From contig RSEE01000073.1 in NCBI GenBank assembly GCA_003971905.1, positions 186,001-250,000 of the forward strand: a stretch of 64,000 bases of DNA, read 5' to 3'. This DNA is from Moniliella sp. 'wahieum'. Taxonomy: Eukaryota. The position numbers and the translations under genes are program-made. Each line of letters starts with the position of its first letter. Position 1 is the stretch's first letter. The notes under the pieces are model-generated. The model did not search any database, was not told the origin of the DNA, and was given only the letters and a program-made list of their open reading frames with translations. Positions 13,403 to 45,158 of this stretch are shown here, piece by piece.

Positions 13403-14412
13403 ATGCCGTTCCAGGTCGGCAACTACACGGGCCTTTGCGAGGAGGTCCCTCCTGCCCTGTCGCTGCTCAACACCGAGGCCGGCATCGTGCTACGTGCTAT
13501 GCCCGCAGCGTCCAGCTCGGCAGCACCCTCGTCTTCCAGGTGGTAGTCTTCCTCCTGCCTCTTCTCCTCTTCTGCCGCCAGAATTGACTGGGCGTCGCAA
13601 CAGCACATGTGTGATGCACATCTTTGCCGTCTTTATGGTGCTCATTATGCTCTACCACATCCGCTCCAAGTACACTGCTGTCGGCCGCCGTGGAGATTAG
13701 TCTCTTTTTCTGCCTCTACATCATCGAGGAAATCCTGGGCATCTTTCTTGACTGGCGCGTCATCCCCACGTAGGGGCGCCTACCTGTGGATCGTCTCTGT
13801 TCACGTCGGCCTCGTTCTTGCCTTGAGCTGGGTCTCATGGCCAATGGGTTTGTCGGCTTTCAGTTCTGGGAGGACGGGACGCGGCAATCCCTTCTCTCCA
13901 TGTACGGCTCTACCCCTGGTACTTTGGGTCGTTGGCTTTGTCGTGGGGCGGCTACCTTCAAGGGATGGGAGGCGCTTAACCCACAACACCACGTCGGGCA
14001 TACGTGGTCCACATGATCATTCCTTTGGTCTTCACCTCAATCTGGCTTGTTACCCAGGTCTGGATCGTGCTTCGTACCCTCGACACTCTTTGGCCCCTGG
14101 GCGACCTCGCCTTTGCCACCATCTTCTATGTTGGAGGCTGGTGTTGATGGGGGGTGTCAACGGACGTGTGCACCGGAACAAAGCATTACGTCGATGGCCT
14201 CTTCTTTGGACGCTCGCTATCCTTTTTGCCATCATGATGGTGTACAAGTTCTGGGACGCATCCCAAGAGAAGACCTCGAGTTCAGCGTCGGTACCAAGGT
14301 TGCTGCCTGGGAAGTCAACGACATCTACTTGGGCTCCGAGACCGACTCGGTCATTTCCAAGCCCTTAGGGGGACACCCTCGACTGGCCAAGGCTGGGTAC
14401 CAACCGTTTTAG
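13403..14412 (+). CDS. CHS7: Chitin synthase export chaperone Chs7, copy 1 (many single-base deletions in this assembly)
   Basis: MPFQVGNYTGLC start, IMLYHIRSKYTAVGRR, ANGFVGFQFWEDGT, MMVYKFWD, EDLEFSVG. Intron at ~13543-13603. Colinear with the copy at 44129-45158. Confidence 0.88.
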
Positions 14413-25604: not shown

Positions 25605-28600
25605 ACACCTTTTCTCTTCGTCTCATCGACAAAGTGTATCAAGCCTAGGTCCCCGCTGGTGCTGACGGCCCCTCACGCCACCTCGGCTAAGCGGCGCATC
25701 AAACGCGGCGCAGGGGCACTGGAGCGCGCAACCCAAGCGCGTCGCACCGCTTCGGGTGTCGGTAGGAGAACCTCTGAACATCCGCCTCGCAGCGCAGACG
25801 ATGATGTGCATATGACTGCGCATCGTCCAGCAGTACAGCTGAGGCAATTCGCTCCCCCTTCATCTTTCCAGCCCCACGCTACATCCCCCCCCCTCTGCCA
25901 TCGGTTGCAGTCCGGCTCTCAACAAGCCCCCCACCCGACACGGCCCACCCCTATCAAATGGCCCCTCGGTGATGGGAAGACATGGTATGGCCACTTGTCC
26001 GCCACAGATGGAGCTTTTATGCAGGTCTTGTGGCCACCAACGCGGCAATACTCAATCGAGAACTACCGAGGTGGTTGCTGGCCGCGCTTCCGAGTGCGGG
26101 GCGGATATTTCGGCGTTCAATCTATATACGTGGATGCTGTCGTGTTTGATGCAATCCAGCATAACGCCAACGTGGGTGGCCCAGCGCTTTCGGTCATTGG
26201 CCATCGACCGGTCATAAAAGGGGGGCTTGAAAGGGTTGTATGCATGCTCGCCCCCACGGGCAAGAACAGCACCGTGAGGTATAATATGTTTGAAGCGCAC
26301 CAATACACCGATTTCTCAACGCGCGAGGCTCCCGACCCAGTCACCATGGCCGACCGCCTCATTCGGGAGGGCTGCCTCAGCCGCGCAGCAAGTACCCTCG
26401 TCGGCCAATCCACCATTGCCCCTCTCACCCCCGAGACCCAGGCAAGCCTGGAAAAGCTCCACCCCGTTGGAGAGGCGAACCCCTTCAGCCTCGGCCCGGG
26501 CACAGCCTTTGGCAACACCACCACCCGCACTCGTCCCACCCACACAGGCCGCGTGGTACCGCCGTGCACCACCCTCACCGACACGACGGACAGTGACCGC
26601 ATCGTGGTGGACTTGGACGAAATCGACTTTGTTGCTTTGATTGCCACATTTAGAATCGACGTTGGGGCAGGTCTATCCGGGTGGACCCAGCCCCTCCTAA
26701 AAACGACCCTTGAATGCAAGCGCTTCGTCGCCTTTCTCACCGCCCTCACCAAGAGTATTTACCACGGCACTGCCCCAGGACGCGAGCTCCTGTTGGCCTC
26801 CCGCCTTACCCCCCTGGAGAAGGCATCGGGCGGCATCCGCCCCATCGCCTGTGGGGAGCTGATCTACCGCCTGTGCGCCAAGGCCATAGCTCGAGCGATC
26901 TCCCCCAACAGCTGGCTTCTCCCCACCCAGTTGGGAGTAGCATCCCAAAACGGGGTGGAGCCTATCGTGCGGATGGTCGAGCGCATGACAGCGCCAGGCG
27001 GGGAGAACGATGCGGAACTGGGCGACTTCAGCCTCGTCGCCATGCTCGACTTTACCAACGCCTTCAACACTGTGCGCCGTCGCACACTCGCCAAGGCACT
27101 CCATGCCTACGCCCCCCATCTCCTCACCTTGGGCCGATGGATCTATGGTTCCCCCACCCAGCTTTGGGTTGCGTCGGGCGGAAATGAGACCAGCGTCCTG
27201 TCGGCAGAGGGCGTGCGGCAGGGCGACCCCCTCGCCCCCTTTTTCTTCTCCATCGCAGTGCGGCCCACGCTAGAGAAGTTGAGCATTGCTCTGCCGCCGG
27301 GGCACCTGGTGATGGCATACCTGGACGACATTACGATTTTCGGTCCAGAGCCAGGCATTACCGGCCAAGCCGCGGAGATTTTGGAAGACGACGCGTCAGG
27401 CCTCAAGCTCAACCTGCGCAAGTGCGTCGAGTGGGACCAGGACCAGATTCGGGAGGATGGTCTGCAGGTTCTGGGCACTTGTGTGGGAGGGGTAGACTGT
27501 CGTCGATCGTGGCTCCGGGCCCAACTGGCCAGTCTGAGGGAGAACATGCCTAAGTTTGATGGCATCACCCGCCAGGGACGTCTCTTACTATGGCGGCTCA
27601 GCACTCAGACCAAGCTGCGCCACCTGCTCCGCACCATGCAGATGGAAGGAGAGCTCGACGACGTGTTGGCCGAGATTGATGCCTTCATCTGTACGGAGTT
27701 CAGACGGATCCGGGGCGACGAGGATCCCCAAGGTGCCAAGGACGACCACTTCGACATGCTCATGAGCCTGCCTCTCCGGCTGGGAGGATGTGGCAGCCCG
27801 CTTTACTCGCATATCGCGCCCCACGCCCGTGCCGCGGCCAACGAGGTCAACGACTATCTTATTACCACTTATGTTGACCGTTCGGGACCGCAAACGGCAA
27901 CGGCCAACGCATTTACGAGGCAACGCCAGCGCTGCCGCGAGATGTGGGAGCAAAGTCGACAGGAGCTGCTCCAGAAGCTGGACGCTGCCGATGGTCGCCA
28001 TGTGGTTGAGCACAGCAACCCGCTGAGCCACAACTGGCTCTCCGCAAAATTCCATCCGTCCCGTACCTTAAGCTCTCTGACCAGGAGGTCCGGGTGGGTC
28101 TCCAGCTCCGCACGCTGTGCCGCACCACGCGCAGCAGGTGCAAGTGCGGTGTCATGTCCTCGCTGGAGCACATCATGTCTTGCACCCGCACCCAGGCCAA
28201 GTTTGGTGCGTTGCATGAGGCAGTGCGGGAGCCCATTCTCCAGCTCATACGCTCCATCCCCGACACTCACGTCCGCAACGAACCTATGGTGGAGGACGAG
28301 GATGGGACGAGGCACGGACCGAGGTCACAGCGCACCGACTACCGTGTGATGGGGCCTGGAGCACTGGGAGGAACCGGAATGGAGGTCGACCACACGCTGC
28401 GCGACACGGGAACGCATGAGGCGCAGAACGCGTACCGGCGGGTGGTACACGAGAGCACTGCGTCGCCTCTGGAACGCCGGGAGAAGGAACTGCTTCGACT
28501 GCTTGAACAAGCAGAATGCGACAAGAACGCCAAGTACCAGGGACGCACTCAAGAGACGTTTTTCCCCCTGGTTTTGACGACGCGAGGATACTACGGCACC

Positions 28601-28880
28601 AAGACAGCGGGCAAGTTGTTTGCGCATTGGAAGGAGTTGGCTACCAAGTCTCAGTGGAAATGGTTCCTCGCTCGGATGTCAACCACGTTCATCCGTGTCC
28701 ACACGCGCTACCTAGGGTACGGGACCGGATGGCGAGAGCCGGAGGGTCCTGATATCCTAGCGATCCCCCTGGTTCCTTGACCTTAGTGGCGCTTTCAAAC
28801 AACCCCCAAGATGAACGGTTCGGTTTAGACGTAGCGTTCCCCCTGTCCCAGCCTTAAGCTCTGTCAATGATATGAATTCA
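25605..28880 (+). mobile_element. Non-LTR retrotransposon of the CRE clade (Cnl1/MoTeR-like): RT + CCHC knuckle + restriction-like endonuclease
   Basis: Intronless ORF with LTPLEKASGGIRPIACGELIYRL, DFTNAFN, GVRQGDPLAPFFFS, YLDD and LPLRLGGCG. After one frameshift (~28060): CKCGVMSSLEHIMSC, HEAVR (RHD-like), RTDY..EVD, KNAKY, FFPLVLTTRG. Element boundaries are approximate. Confidence 0.9.
25659..28780 (+). CDS. Reverse transcriptase-endonuclease polyprotein of the CRE-like element
   Basis: ORFs 25659-28349 and 28094-28780 are joined by a frameshift. RT motifs include YLDD, followed by a C-terminal REL domain. Confidence 0.88.
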
Positions 28881-29257
28881 GAAAGGAAGAAAATGAAGAG
28901 ACGCAATTTATAGAAAGAGCTAAGGTGGCTGTGGCCGGATCAGAGGGAACTGTTGTTCTTCGTTTGACCGCTGTAAGAGTGAATAGGTACAAGAGAGCTG
29001 GTGCTCAAAAGGACAAGTATAGAAAGGAAGAAAATCCAAGACAAAGGGTGTGCTCCAGATAGAGAAAAATGCGGCCGGTTTTGTTAGTGGGCAGAGGGAT
29101 CTCTCTGGCAATTGCATGGGCCATCCAATCGAAGGCGCATGTGTAATACCGAACAATGCCAGAAGAACTGAATGGCGGGGACCAGCAGAAAAAGCGAGGA
29201 CAGTTCAGTCTTCCACACAAGAGCCCATGAAGGAAAGGCCACAGGTGAGAGAGGGTG

Positions 29258-40841: not shown

Positions 40842-42004
40842 ATGAGCTCGATGGCCGCCGCCGCCGCCGCTGCCGATGTGTCCGCTGCCGCTGCCGCCGC
40901 CGATGCGCCGCCAGGCGTGTTCGTGTACGGCACGCTCACCCACCCGCTCATCCTCCGCCGCGTGCTCGGCCTCCCGCCCACCGAGCGCCTCGAAGTGCGC
41001 GCCTACCCTGCCCTCGCCCCGCTCCACGCCGTGCACCATGTGCGCGGCGAAGACTATCCTGGCCTTTCCCCGTCCGTCGCCTCCGTGGACGGCGAGCCGC
41101 TCCCCCCCGCCGCATGCTTTGCGCGCGGGCTGCTGATTGATGGTCTCACCCCCGAGCACCTGCGCCTGCTCGATGCGTTTGAGGCGGACGAGTACACGCG
41201 CGACGTGATCGACATTATCCTCCTGACGGCTCCACTCCCGTGCCCGACACGGCCTCCCCGCCCCGCCGCCGACCGAGGCTGACAAGGCGACGGAATCTCT
41301 GCTTGCTACGTTCCAGCTGCTCGACGTGGCTGCCTCTGCGCTCTCCATGGCCCCCGACAGCGCTGACGATCCCGACCTGCGCCGCACGGCCCAAGTGTAC
41401 CTCTGGACCGCTGGCGAGGACAAGCTGATCCCTTTGACCGAAGGCCGGGCGCACAGGGGCGCCTGGCGGCTCGAAGCGTTTGTCCAGCACAAAGTGGAGG
41501 AATGGACGTCAACAGCGGACGATAGCGAGCTCTTTACCGCTGTTGACCGACTGCGCTTGGGCCTGCCTGAGCCGGCGCCCGCGCCGCGCGCGCGGCGTAC
41601 GAGGACGACGATCCCTGGTCTTCCGGCCCTGGCGTTGGAGGCGACATCCCCGCTGCCGTGCGAGTCGCTGCAGCAGCCGAGGCTGGCGTCGACGACGATC
41701 CCTGGGGCACCCCACGTGCCTTCACGCCCGACCCGCATGGTCTGACAGCAGCCGTGGCGGCTGCTTCGGTCGCGGCGGCCGTGCCGCGTTCTTCCCTCGT
41801 CCCTCCTCTCACCCCGCCACCCCCGTCGGGGGAGGAAGACCTCGAGGCACATGCCGGATGGGGAGATGGCGCAGCGGAGCCCGAGGAGCACGAGGAACAA
41901 GGCGAGCGATTTGTCGATCCGGACGAAGACCATCGATACTTACGTTGGGCCATGCGATTCGTCACACTGGGCCTTTGCCGAGGGCTACACCAATCTTAAC
42001 AATG

Positions 42005-42042
<38 letters not shown>

Positions 42043-43441
42043 GTTTTTGGATACTGGGGTGAGGAGTATGTACTGACGCGCAACAGGTTCGTTTGGCGCG
42101 CCTCCCAAGGAAGTACGACACCTTTATCGCTCGATTCAGGAGGAGGTGGATGCAAATCCGGATCTGTTTCATCGTACTGCGTTCCCCCAGCAGCTACGCA
42201 CATTTTACCAACGCATCGCACCGCACCTGCACTGTGCGCCGGCAAACCTGTGCATGGTGCCCAACGCGACCACCGGCACCAATGCCATCCTGCGCGACTT
42301 TCCCTGGCGGGCCGGGGACGTGGTGGTGCTCACGAGTCTGGGCTACGATTCAGTGGAAAAGACAGTACGGTACGTGCAGGACAGCTTGACGCCTCGTCTG
42401 GGTGACCCGGCGCAGGGAGAAGAGGGCCAAGTGCCGCGCCTGGTCACCGTTCCGCTCGTGCTACCAATGAGCCACGATGATGGTGGCCAAGGTGGAGCAG
42501 GTGCTGGATAGCCTGCCCGCCGTCAGCCAAGATGATGGTGATGGATGCGGTGACGAGCAAGCCGGCGGTCCGAATGCCATGGGAGCGACTCTGTCAACTT
42601 GTCCGCCGCCGCGGGATCTTTTCCCTGGTCGATGCAGCGCATGGCATCGGCGCCATCCCAATCAACATTGAGCAGGCGCAACCGGACGCATTGGTCACCC
42701 TACCGAGCAAGTGGTGTTATGCGGCGCGGGCGGCCGCTGTGCTCTACGTCGCACCGGACCAGGCGGGCCGGGTGCCATTCAGCTCGGTCCCGACCAGCCA
42801 CGGGTACGTGCGCCAGGCGCAGCTGCAAGCGCTCCCGCCTGCCCAGCGCGCGCAGTCGTGGCAGGCGCAGTGGGACGATGCAGGGACGACCGACTTTGCC
42901 CACTTGCCAGCTGCGCTGGGCGGGCTGGACTTTGCCGAGACGCGCTTGGGCGGCCTGGAGCGCGTGCGCGCCTACACGACGTACCTCGCCCGCGTTGGTG
43001 GGCAAGCCGCGGCGCACATCCTCGGCACAGATACCTTGGATGGCGGCGACGCCGACTTGGCCGACATACCGATGGTCAATGTCCGCTTGCCACTCAACAA
43101 GGACGTCTGGGATGAGACGTGGATGCGGCCGGGCGGGGTGAACGACTATGTGGAGCAAAAGTTGCTGTGGTTCAAGACGACCATTCCGCTGTGCGAGTAT
43201 GTCCTGTTCTTCTGTTGGGGGCCTAGGAGGAGGAGGAGGGGGAGAGGAAGCAGAGGCCAAGCCAAAGCCAAAGGCACAGACACACAGGCAGAGCTGACCC
43301 AAACGTACCAGACACAACGGCGCACTGTATGCGCGCTTCTCGGCGCAGGTGTGGCTGGAGCGGGGCGACTTTGAGTACGGCGCGCGCGCACTCAAGGAAA
43401 TCTGCCGCCGCCTCAACGCAGGTGAGGCGCAGCTGGAATAA
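40842..43441 (+). CDS. Apparent fusion: AIG2-like gamma-glutamylcyclotransferase domain + linker + class V PLP enzyme (hercynylcysteine sulfoxide lyase Egt2-like)
   Basis: GGCT/AIG2 motifs: VFVYGTL, HHVRGEDYPGL, LRLLDAFEADEYTR, TAQVYLW. Egt2-like motifs: YTNLNNG/SFGAPP, MVPNATTGTNAIL, DAVTSKPAVRMPWERL, LVDAAHGIG, SKW (PLP Lys), YARFSAQVWLERGDFE..ALKEICRR. There is no intergenic gap between the two parts. Confidence 0.75.
42010..42040. repeat. (CT)n microsatellite inside an intron of the Egt2-like segment
   Basis: About 15 CT units after the GTAAG donor. Confidence 0.9.
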
Positions 43442-44128: not shown

Positions 44129-45158
44129 CTAAAAGGTCTGGTAGCCAGCCTTGTTGGTTTTGGTGTGGGAGGTAGCTAGCAAGTGATGGGGTTTGGAGGT
44201 GAGCGAGTCGGACTCGGAGCCAAAAAAGACTGGGTCCTTGACTTGCCAGTTGGCCAGCTTGCTTCCGACGGAAAACTCGAGGTCTTCCCTGGTGATGTCG
44301 TCCCAGAACTTGTAGACCATCATGATGGCAAAGAGGATGGCGAGCGTGCCAAAGAAGAGACCGTCGACATAATGTTTGGTGCCTGTGCACACGTCCGTTG
44401 ACACGCCCAGCATCAGCACCAGCCCGCCGACGTAGAACACCGTGGCGCAGGCCAGGTCGCCCAGCGGCCAGAGCGTGTCGAGCGTGCGCAGCACAATCCA
44501 GATCTGGGTCACGAGCCAAATCGCAATAAAGATAACGGGTACAATGAGATGAACGACATAGAGCCCCACGTGGTGCTGCGGGTCGAGACTGCCTCCCCAG
44601 CCTTGAAATGTGGCGGCGGCAACGACAAAGCCGACGAGCCAGAGAAGCAGGGTCGAGGCGTACATGGAGAGGAGCGACTGCCGCGTCCCGTCCTCCCAGA
44701 ACTGAAAGCCGACAAAGCCGTTGGCCATCAGGCACCAGCTCAGCGCAAGCACCAGCCCCACGTGCACCGCCACGATCCATACGTACGCGCCCGAGTAGGT
44801 GGGGATGATGGCCGAGTCGAGGAAGATGCCGAGCACCTCCTCGACAAGGTAGAGGCAGAAGAAGAGGCTGATCTCGCGGCGGCCGACAGCGGTGTACTTG
44901 GAGCGGATGTGGTAGAGCATGATGGCGACCATGAAGAAGGCAAAGATGTGGATGACGCATGTGGCTGGGGGGGGGGGGTCAGTGGGGGGCGGGGGGGGGG
45001 GCGAGCGACGCACCGCACTGGAAGACGAGGGTGGAGCCGAGCTGGACGCTGCGCGCATAGCACGTGGGCACGATGCCGGCGTCCGAGTTGAGCAGCGGGC
45101 AGGGCAGCAGCGCCACCTCGTGGCACAGGCCGGTGTAGTTGCCCACCTGGAACGGCAT
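44129..45158 (-). CDS. CHS7: Chitin synthase export chaperone Chs7, copy 2 (intact)
   Basis: MPFQVGNYTGLCHEV...; intron 44965-45013; IMLYHIRSKYTAVGRREI, ANGFVGFQFWEDGT, HYVDGLFF, MMVYKFWDDITREDLEFSVG; multiple TM segments. Confidence 0.93.

Follow-up and report, generated by a model that had tools for sequence, protein, structure and literature searches.

A predicted gamma-glutamylcyclotransferase-like/Egt2-like C-S lyase fusion in Moniliella and other Basidiomycota

A fused gene in the analyzed window

In this study, we analyzed a window of 64,000 nt from Moniliella sp. 'wahieum' (GCA_003971905.1, contig RSEE01000073.1, positions 186,001 to 250,000), and all coordinates below refer to this window unless another contig is named. 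The window belongs to contig C73 of an assembly of 69.5 Mb in 223 contigs. On its forward strand, a GGACT/AIG2-like domain of the gamma-glutamylcyclotransferase (GGCT) fold is followed by a pyridoxal phosphate (PLP)-dependent lyase of the Aminotran_5 family in one predicted gene of about 800 codons. Genomic and protein comparisons support the reading of both parts as one fused gene. On this evidence the fusion is real and widespread, has gone unremarked so far, and joins two known enzyme families with testable chemistry; a main role in ergothioneine synthesis is not supported. The predicted features are listed below.

40842..42004, + strand: exon 1, with the GGCT/AIG2-like domain, the linker and the first ~20 lyase residues; intron-free, with five single-base losses
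40911..41560, + strand: GGACT/AIG2-like putative cyclotransferase domain with a helical insert, ending with W..F....K..W and AVDR elements
40926..40937, + strand: YGTL substrate-binding loop (GGACT Tyr7-Leu10), by motif alignment
41181..41183, + strand: putative catalytic Glu (GGACT Glu82 position), by profile alignment
41561..41945, + strand: acidic/Ala-rich coding linker with two DPW motifs, 41610-41618 and 41697-41705
42005..42086, + strand: intron 1, 82 nt, phase 1, with a CT repeat, GTAAGC...TACTGAC...CAG, between NNG and SFG
42087..43196, + strand: exon 2, Egt2-like PLP lyase core, with assembly shifts at ~42480 and ~42526
42631, + strand: DAAH, lyase motif in exon 2
42706-42714, + strand: S-K-W, with the predicted PLP Lys at 42709
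42799, + strand: His of PTSHG, lyase motif in exon 2
43197..43311, + strand: intron 2, 115 nt, GTATGT...CTGAC...CAG
43312..43441, + strand: exon 3, with the ARFSAQ motif (carboxylate-binding Arg position) and stop codon TAA at 43439-43441; whole protein ~800 aa

The most informative relative is P0003, a protein of 398 aa found by a search with the GGCT half and 78% identical to the window. P0003 and P0004 come from independent Logan assemblies, on 3 and 4 contigs. P0003 runs in a single frame through the GGCT domain, the linker and the lyase start, and stops at an intron after NLNNG. In a frameshift-aware alignment, the window is identical to it at 294 of 397 columns given five single-base losses at ~41220, 41270, 41593, 41946 and 41963. 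The remainder of the lyase of this relative is P0161/P0173, on contigs whose longest lengths, 3837 and 3839, equal those for P0003 and P0004; it aligns with exons 2-3 of the window in four pieces at 71-86% identity. Canonical donor, branch and acceptor sites are present in both introns, and P0003 and P0016 reach an intron at the same place as intron 1. The corrected reading contains no in-frame stop.

The first-pass annotation of this DNA had described the GGCT domain as running straight into an Egt2-like lyase in one gene, and this was upheld by the unbroken frame of P0003 across the junction and by intact fusions elsewhere. Its linker motifs and TLGHAIR/WAFAEGYTNLNNG were recovered, with the intron within NNG/SFG placed at 42005-42086. 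It had seen no room for a terminator or promoter, in agreement with a linker that lacks AATAAA and TATA and has a GC content of 71%, like the GGCT exon. The further intron that it proposed at ~41240-41316 was rejected. This stretch is read as coding because the losses at ~41220 and ~41270 bracket the proposed intron and it aligns in frame with P0003 across them; its GC content is 70%, versus 49% and 58% in the two real introns. The 1-bp shifts reported at ~41590 and ~41940-41960 were found at 41593, 41946 and 41963, and four others (~41220, ~41270, ~42480 and ~42526) had been overlooked.

The window gene carries a total of 7 shifts over ~2.4 kb of coding DNA. For comparison, the neighbouring gene has 8 private non-triplet indels in 2.5 kb, some of them probably intronic, and the two Egt1 copies of this genome differ by 37 non-triplet gaps over 3.2 kb. 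The shifts of the window gene match this assembly background. They could also be taken as signs of two adjacent genes or of a decayed gene, since without the shift at 41593 the GGCT frame reaches a TGA at 41743-41745, the stop that would have separated the domains. However, the frame leading to this TGA is unlike P0003, whereas the shifted frame resembles it and includes both DPW motifs. With an error rate equal to the background, a stop-free corrected reading and many intact fusions elsewhere, separate or decayed genes are scarcely credible. Among sequencing runs, no RNA run was listed as carrying this DNA. One DNA run with a small share of it contained two exact 151-base pieces (41375-41525 and 41646-41796), among 8 of 26 pieces shown; neither lies over a frameshift, and they were not used as evidence.

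The GGCT/AIG2-like domain

The AIG2/GGCT assignment of the first-pass annotation was confirmed by a match to PF06094 within 40842-41276 (E 1.9e-7; 32.1 bits against a cut-off of 22.8). Catalysis by GGACT involves Tyr7-Gly8-Thr9-Leu10, Glu82 and Tyr88 (PMC2954230; here and below, papers cited by accession or DOI are represented by excerpts unless a supplement is named). The window carries YGTL and FEADEY, and thus the YG[ST]L loop, the catalytic Glu and the position of Tyr88. Glu occupies the catalytic position in all 113 aligned relatives, which were chosen by likeness to P0003, and YG[TS]L is nearly invariant. The best solved matches of the GGCT profile are Arabidopsis AIG2-like proteins (E 2e-30 and 1e-27), with GGACT next (7e-4). 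The profile places the family Glu on the E82Q site of GGACT, and the E82Q mutant structure scores lower. An AlphaFold model of P0003 has the GGCT fold and matches AIG2-like, ChaC, GGACT and GGCT structures in Foldseek. Plant AIG2-like proteins (PDB 2JQV, 2G0Q) and human/mouse GGACT (3JUB/3JUC/1VKB) share with the window YG[TS]L, LD.FE with the catalytic Glu, and the following Tyr, whereas the fungal form has an insert of ~50 residues and a fused PLP enzyme. An AIG2/GGACT fold with the catalytic Glu kept is shown by these comparisons, and cyclotransferase activity is predicted.

The Egt2-like lyase domain

The longest unbroken lyase stretch of the window matches Aminotran_5 (PF00266) with 22.4 bits (E 7e-5), in accordance with the Egt2-like PLP lyase described before. 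The fused lyase belongs to fold type I and matches best Neurospora crassa Egt2 (E 6e-49), followed by LolT; a full fusion retrieves the same Egt2 by Foldseek at 3.8e-44. LolT is a Mannich cyclase, so that the family includes activities besides Egt2. The positions of Tyr134, Asp221, Lys247, His276 and Arg438 of N. crassa Egt2 are kept in the window lineage, counted by hand with a 7-residue offset set by the Y134F structure entry. His246 is replaced by Ser, Gln224 by His and Phe304 by Asp. Compared with N. crassa Egt2 (PDB 5UTS/5V12/5V1X), the window enzyme shares the fold at ~35% identity and the five kept positions, but adds the N-terminal GGCT domain and has NLNNG instead of NLNHG. An Egt2-type PLP fold with Lys, Asp and Tyr is shown in this way, and its catalysis is predicted.

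The SKW in place of the usual HKW was rightly noticed in the first reading and proved to be confined to the window lineage. His before the PLP Lys is replaced in the window, P0161 and P0162, and HKW is kept in the other fusions that extend to this motif. The SKW sequences group together with 100/100 support, and the stem of this clade is long (0.71). The fused lyase of this lineage has probably diverged, with His changed to Ser before Lys and Asp at the Phe304 position of Egt2. Ser preceding the PLP Lys is common among fold-type I enzymes; therefore the SKW form may be active. Four lyase-bearing proteins scored 15-33 bits against the IscS/NifS equivalog TIGR02006 (cut-off 643) and 21.7-38.6 bits against the EgtE equivalog TIGR04343 (cut-off 400).

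Distribution of the fusion

A HMMER search of 1.84 billion representatives gave 216 matches, 150 of which were listed. Both Pfam domains were found in 12 of 27 scanned matches, which were picked as top or long ones. With 8 of these proteins contributing to its construction, a lyase profile matches 14 of the 150 listed homologues, and the N-terminal lyase motif adds P0003, P0012, P0016, P0066 and P0078. By profile or motif, 19 of the 150 are thus fused, and the refuting case considered at the outset, in which relatives keep the two domains in separate genes throughout, does not hold. The fusions came from this full scan; searches for longer homologues with the single halves gave 2 and 1 matches. 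Named fusions are from Mixia osmundae, Sporobolomyces (2), Wallemia mellicola, Cryptococcus sp., Tulasnella (2), Auriculariales sp. and Rhizoctonia solani, which we take to span several basidiomycete subphyla. A raw metagenome contig (L021) carries both domains in one unbroken frame, independent of gene prediction. In the metagenome scan, the lyase part was found in 1 of 56 loci, and the other 55 were not classified.

A cluster of 144 members in the ESM Atlas, all eukaryotic and mostly Basidiomycota, contains PF00266 in 99% and PF06094 in 95%. It is auto-named 'Cysteine desulfurase NFS1', and the NCBI entries are named 'PLP-dependent transferase'. The two-domain architecture is the same; the cluster name is misleading and ignores the GGCT domain, and the window form differs from the cluster by its long DPW linker and SKW. 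The architecture is therefore present in databases, under generic names and without comment, which answers a question left by the first-pass annotation. As judged from these sequences, the fusion family is not unique to this genome and occurs across Basidiomycota.

The full-text literature searched yielded no description of the fusion; subscription journals lay outside this search, and the supplements of PMC11089744 (RtEGT2) and PMC10013852 (lecsl trees) may show fused forms. Within ergothioneine, Egt2 and cyclotransferase literature, the full-text search returned papers on GliK only, and no paper in the searched literature joined ergothioneine with AIG2. Searches on AIG2-type cyclotransferase catalysis and on Egt2 in basidiomycetes, including Rhodotorula, Grifola and Ustilago, likewise brought up no account of it. 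The excerpts of PMC10282164 and PMC10858013 also contain nothing on the fusion.

Other domain combinations were observed among the homologues. The related P0009 and P0018 have an acyltransferase domain (PF01553) and GGACT on one chain, which may be another fusion or the product of merging gene models. P0019 (BRCT + GGACT + Aminotran_5) is probably a merged gene model, and its cluster has P0175 and P0177 as separate genes.

Relationship to ergothioneine biosynthesis

The fusion had been proposed as a non-homologous counterpart of EgtC plus EgtE, which would imply that Egt1 uses gamma-Glu-Cys and that the fusion is the main ergothioneine route. The Egt2-like lyase with its kept Tyr134, Asp221, Lys247 and His276 positions and the presence of Egt1 in the genome, in two copies (C64 and C90), are in favor of it, as is the statement that fungi lack EgtC (PMC5066259, PMC4020840). 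The order of reactions would be the same as in mycobacteria if the substrate were gamma-Glu-hercynylcysteine sulfoxide. Mycobacterial EgtC is a glutamine amidotransferase-type hydrolase that yields glutamate (PMC5790434), and the four lyase-bearing proteins scored lie far below the EgtE cut-off.

The substrate of Egt1, a check suggested at the outset, points in another direction. Trp415, Asp416 and Arg420 are among the substrate-binding residues of Mycobacterium smegmatis EgtB (PMC4768315), which ends in NWDHPIRR. The Egt1 of this genome ends in NWYQTPYPY, and the Asp416/Arg420 pair for gamma-Glu-Cys is therefore absent. This C-terminus resembles that of Ustilago maydis, which points to a probably smut-related basidiomycete, and is comparable to NWYQRNYPY of N. 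crassa; the motif was compared by eye with a published supplement, and phmmer gave no C-terminal alignment to EgtB structures. Cysteine is the substrate of N. crassa Egt1 (PMC5790434, PMC11089744), and Egt1 of Flammulina velutipes makes the cysteine product (review PMC11993508). The genome Egt1 likewise looks cysteine-using, judging by its motif.

Moreover, C13 and C30 each carry an unfused Egt2-like gene with NAHKW, and the surrounding 9.5 kb, including ~5 kb upstream, gave no GGCT match in either case. Among the best candidates scored, the sole PF06094 match in the genome is that of the window. The checked basidiomycete Egt2s, characterized or predicted, are unfused, namely GfEgt2 with 477 aa (PMC7437059) and U. 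maydis UM04128 with 465 aa (PMC4020840 supplement), and so is the relative Lecsl. Because Egt1 has a cysteine-type motif, unfused Egt2-like genes are present and the checked Egt2s are unfused, the main ergothioneine route has no need of the fusion, and a dedicated EgtC and EgtE replacement is very unlikely. The unfused NAHKW paralogue probably does the routine ergothioneine lyase work in this lineage. The C13 copy speaks against a clean split of fused and unfused lyases, as it groups with the fused lyases of the window lineage (99/99, and 88/90 in a second tree). It may thus be a former fusion that has lost its GGCT domain, with neither grouping statistically decided. Matches on C1, C25, C52 and C84, considered as extra lyase copies, turned out to be neighbour genes. 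The regions G000 C1:385000-399900 and C25:420000-433200 are diverged copies (~80%) of the unfused-Egt2 region with flanking genes kept, and no lyase was found in the 8 kb fetched of them.

Proposed function

A PLP lyase requires a free alpha-amine for aldimine formation, and gamma-glutamylation blocks this amine. For this reason, the simplest reading of a GGCT domain beside a C-S lyase is an enzyme that processes gamma-Glu-Cys(S-R) in two steps. We see about an even chance that the GGCT domain unmasks the alpha-amine of gamma-Glu-Cys S-conjugates and the tethered lyase then cuts the C-S bond. The cyclotransferase would take the gamma-glutamyl group off as 5-oxoproline, and beta-elimination by the lyase would then yield pyruvate, ammonia and R-SH, or R-SOH where the substrate is a sulfoxide. 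The enzyme would probably act on gamma-Glu-Cys conjugates of glutathione turnover or detoxification and on gamma-glutamyl-cysteine sulfoxides, with a possible side role in clearing gamma-Glu-hercynylcysteine sulfoxide made by Egt1 in error. All substrates named for the fusion are ones that we infer.

Such a two-step order has precedents. In gliotoxin synthesis, the peptidase GliJ and the C-S lyase GliI act downstream of GliK. GliK, a GGCT, takes gamma-Glu off a glutathione S-conjugate before later steps (PMC6923255). Deglutamylation by a cyclotransferase ahead of C-S cleavage is as proposed for the fusion, but the gliotoxin enzymes are separate genes in a secondary-metabolite cluster, whereas the fusion is one chain with housekeeping-like neighbours and no cluster. 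In shiitake, the gamma-glutamyl transpeptidase Leggt and then the C-S lyase Lecsl act on lentinic acid, toward lenthionine (PMC4460571, PMC10013852). This is also a basidiomycete route from a gamma-glutamyl-cysteine sulfoxide by deglutamylation and C-S lysis. Lecsl (497 aa) has the D..H and N.HK PLP motifs, the same as in the fusion, but is unfused, with no GGCT domain reported in the excerpt of PMC4460571, and deglutamylation there is by a transpeptidase. BtrG is a further precedent as a separate gene (10.1101/2025.01.15.633182).

Several points weigh against this proposal. Among solved GGCT-fold structures, the closest are those of plant AIG2-like proteins, which have no clear mode of action (10.1101/2025.01.15.633182), and of GGACT, whose substrates are gamma-glutamylamines, not gamma-glutamyl amino acids. 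For intact glutathione conjugates, a peptidase that removes glycine would be required as well, outside the fusion gene, and the activity of every family member is predicted from sequence. The lyase part is lacking in 131 of the 150 listed homologues, many of which may be exon fragments, and apparently complete stand-alone GGCT forms were found (P0014, P0063, P0029 and P0035). Since many close relatives appear stand-alone, the two domains need not be paired. The approximately unbiased (AU) test rejected neither grouping and does not establish a single origin of the fusion (p 0.15-0.35, with P0163 and P0169 dropped and P0161 and P0162 presumed fused). A first one-clade test (p 3e-5) was discarded as confounded by P0163 and P0169, two fragments of unknown fusion state. 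The GGCT tree (FastTree, 97 of 151 rows kept) is poorly resolved.

In a second reading, gamma-Glu-Cys as such would be the substrate that the GGCT domain splits, and the lyase would be a cysteine desulfhydrase or desulfurase giving H2S or sulfane sulfur. The unfused basidiomycete relative Lecsl has cysteine desulfurase besides sulfoxide lyase activity (PMC4460571), and the Atlas neighbours include plant L-cysteine desulfhydrase clusters at 0.89, which is no more than a lead. However, Egt2 is the closest match in structure and acts on a substrate with a large S-substituent, and such gamma-Glu-Cys catabolism is unlikely.

The linker bears on the coupling of the two domains. Between the last GGCT Trp and the lyase NxNxG, it ranges from 32 to 244 residues across the 17 fused rows, of 18, in which it was measured. 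A full-length model of P0055 shows both domains with high confidence (mean predicted local distance difference test score, pLDDT, 89), with the linker at pLDDT <50 and a predicted template modelling score (pTM) of 0.70. Because of this variable length and poor order, the model fits a flexible tether rather than a tunnel, and the channelling envisaged earlier is not supported. D/N-PW motifs were observed in 9 of the 150 listed homologues, paired in 8 and all in long-linker forms; P0013 in this count ends within the linker and is presumably fused. These motifs resemble AP-2/EH adaptor-binding motifs.

A loose linker of this kind, the D/N-PW motifs, the stand-alone existence of both halves and the Mannich cyclase LolT in the lyase family would also suit two unrelated activities on one chain (e.g. 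a gamma-glutamylamine cyclotransferase and an Egt2-/LolT-like enzyme), joined for co-expression or co-localization, perhaps via DPW/NPW. Yet what the first domain type releases is precisely the class of compound that the second acts on, and a shared pathway would better explain retention over distant classes, which makes unrelated activities a somewhat unlikely alternative.

Genomic context

Both genes flanking the fusion have extra copies at G000 C43:492500-504199 and C155:40300-51999 (L088-L091), which are 85% and ~80% identical to the window and 92-96% to each other. The ~11 kb between these flanking-gene copies holds four other genes (kinase, membrane protein, CAP-Gly protein and GRAM/VASt-like, labelled by eye), and no GGCT or lyase was found there on C43 or C155. 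The assembly resembles that of a hybrid or polyploid whose copies have lost different genes, with the fusion found in one copy only. A non-LTR retroelement-like repeat lies at 25605-28890 (+), with a frame of 914 codons and a reverse transcriptase (PF00078, E 8e-17); part of it has ~40 scored genome copies at 90-96%. Two related genes, at ~14000-14360 (-) and 44190-45000 (-), presumably for Chs7-like chitin synthase export, are 78% identical and have more copies on C43, C155, C39 and C34. A dispersed repeat of 160 bp (L019:2390-2550) has ~28 copies at 91-94% among the matches listed.

Implications

AIG2-like proteins have no settled substrate and fungi are said to have no deglutamylating enzyme, and the conserved fusion is a Rosetta-stone hint for both; it also makes a cheap and direct assay possible. 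In basidiomycetes, BLAST may pick one or the other of two different genes as 'Egt2', a point of importance for the engineering of ergothioneine strains and for work on mushroom sulfur aroma. More tentatively, and with less than an even chance, an ancient single-chain deglutamylase-lyase throughout Basidiomycota would represent an unrecognized route for the breakdown of gamma-Glu-Cys S-conjugates and give the AIG2 branch its first concrete substrate class. It would also supply a fungal EgtC function and a link between glutathione and ergothioneine if it clears gamma-Glu-hercynylcysteine sulfoxide, and the smut-like linker with DPW/NPW may tether the enzyme to trafficking adaptors.

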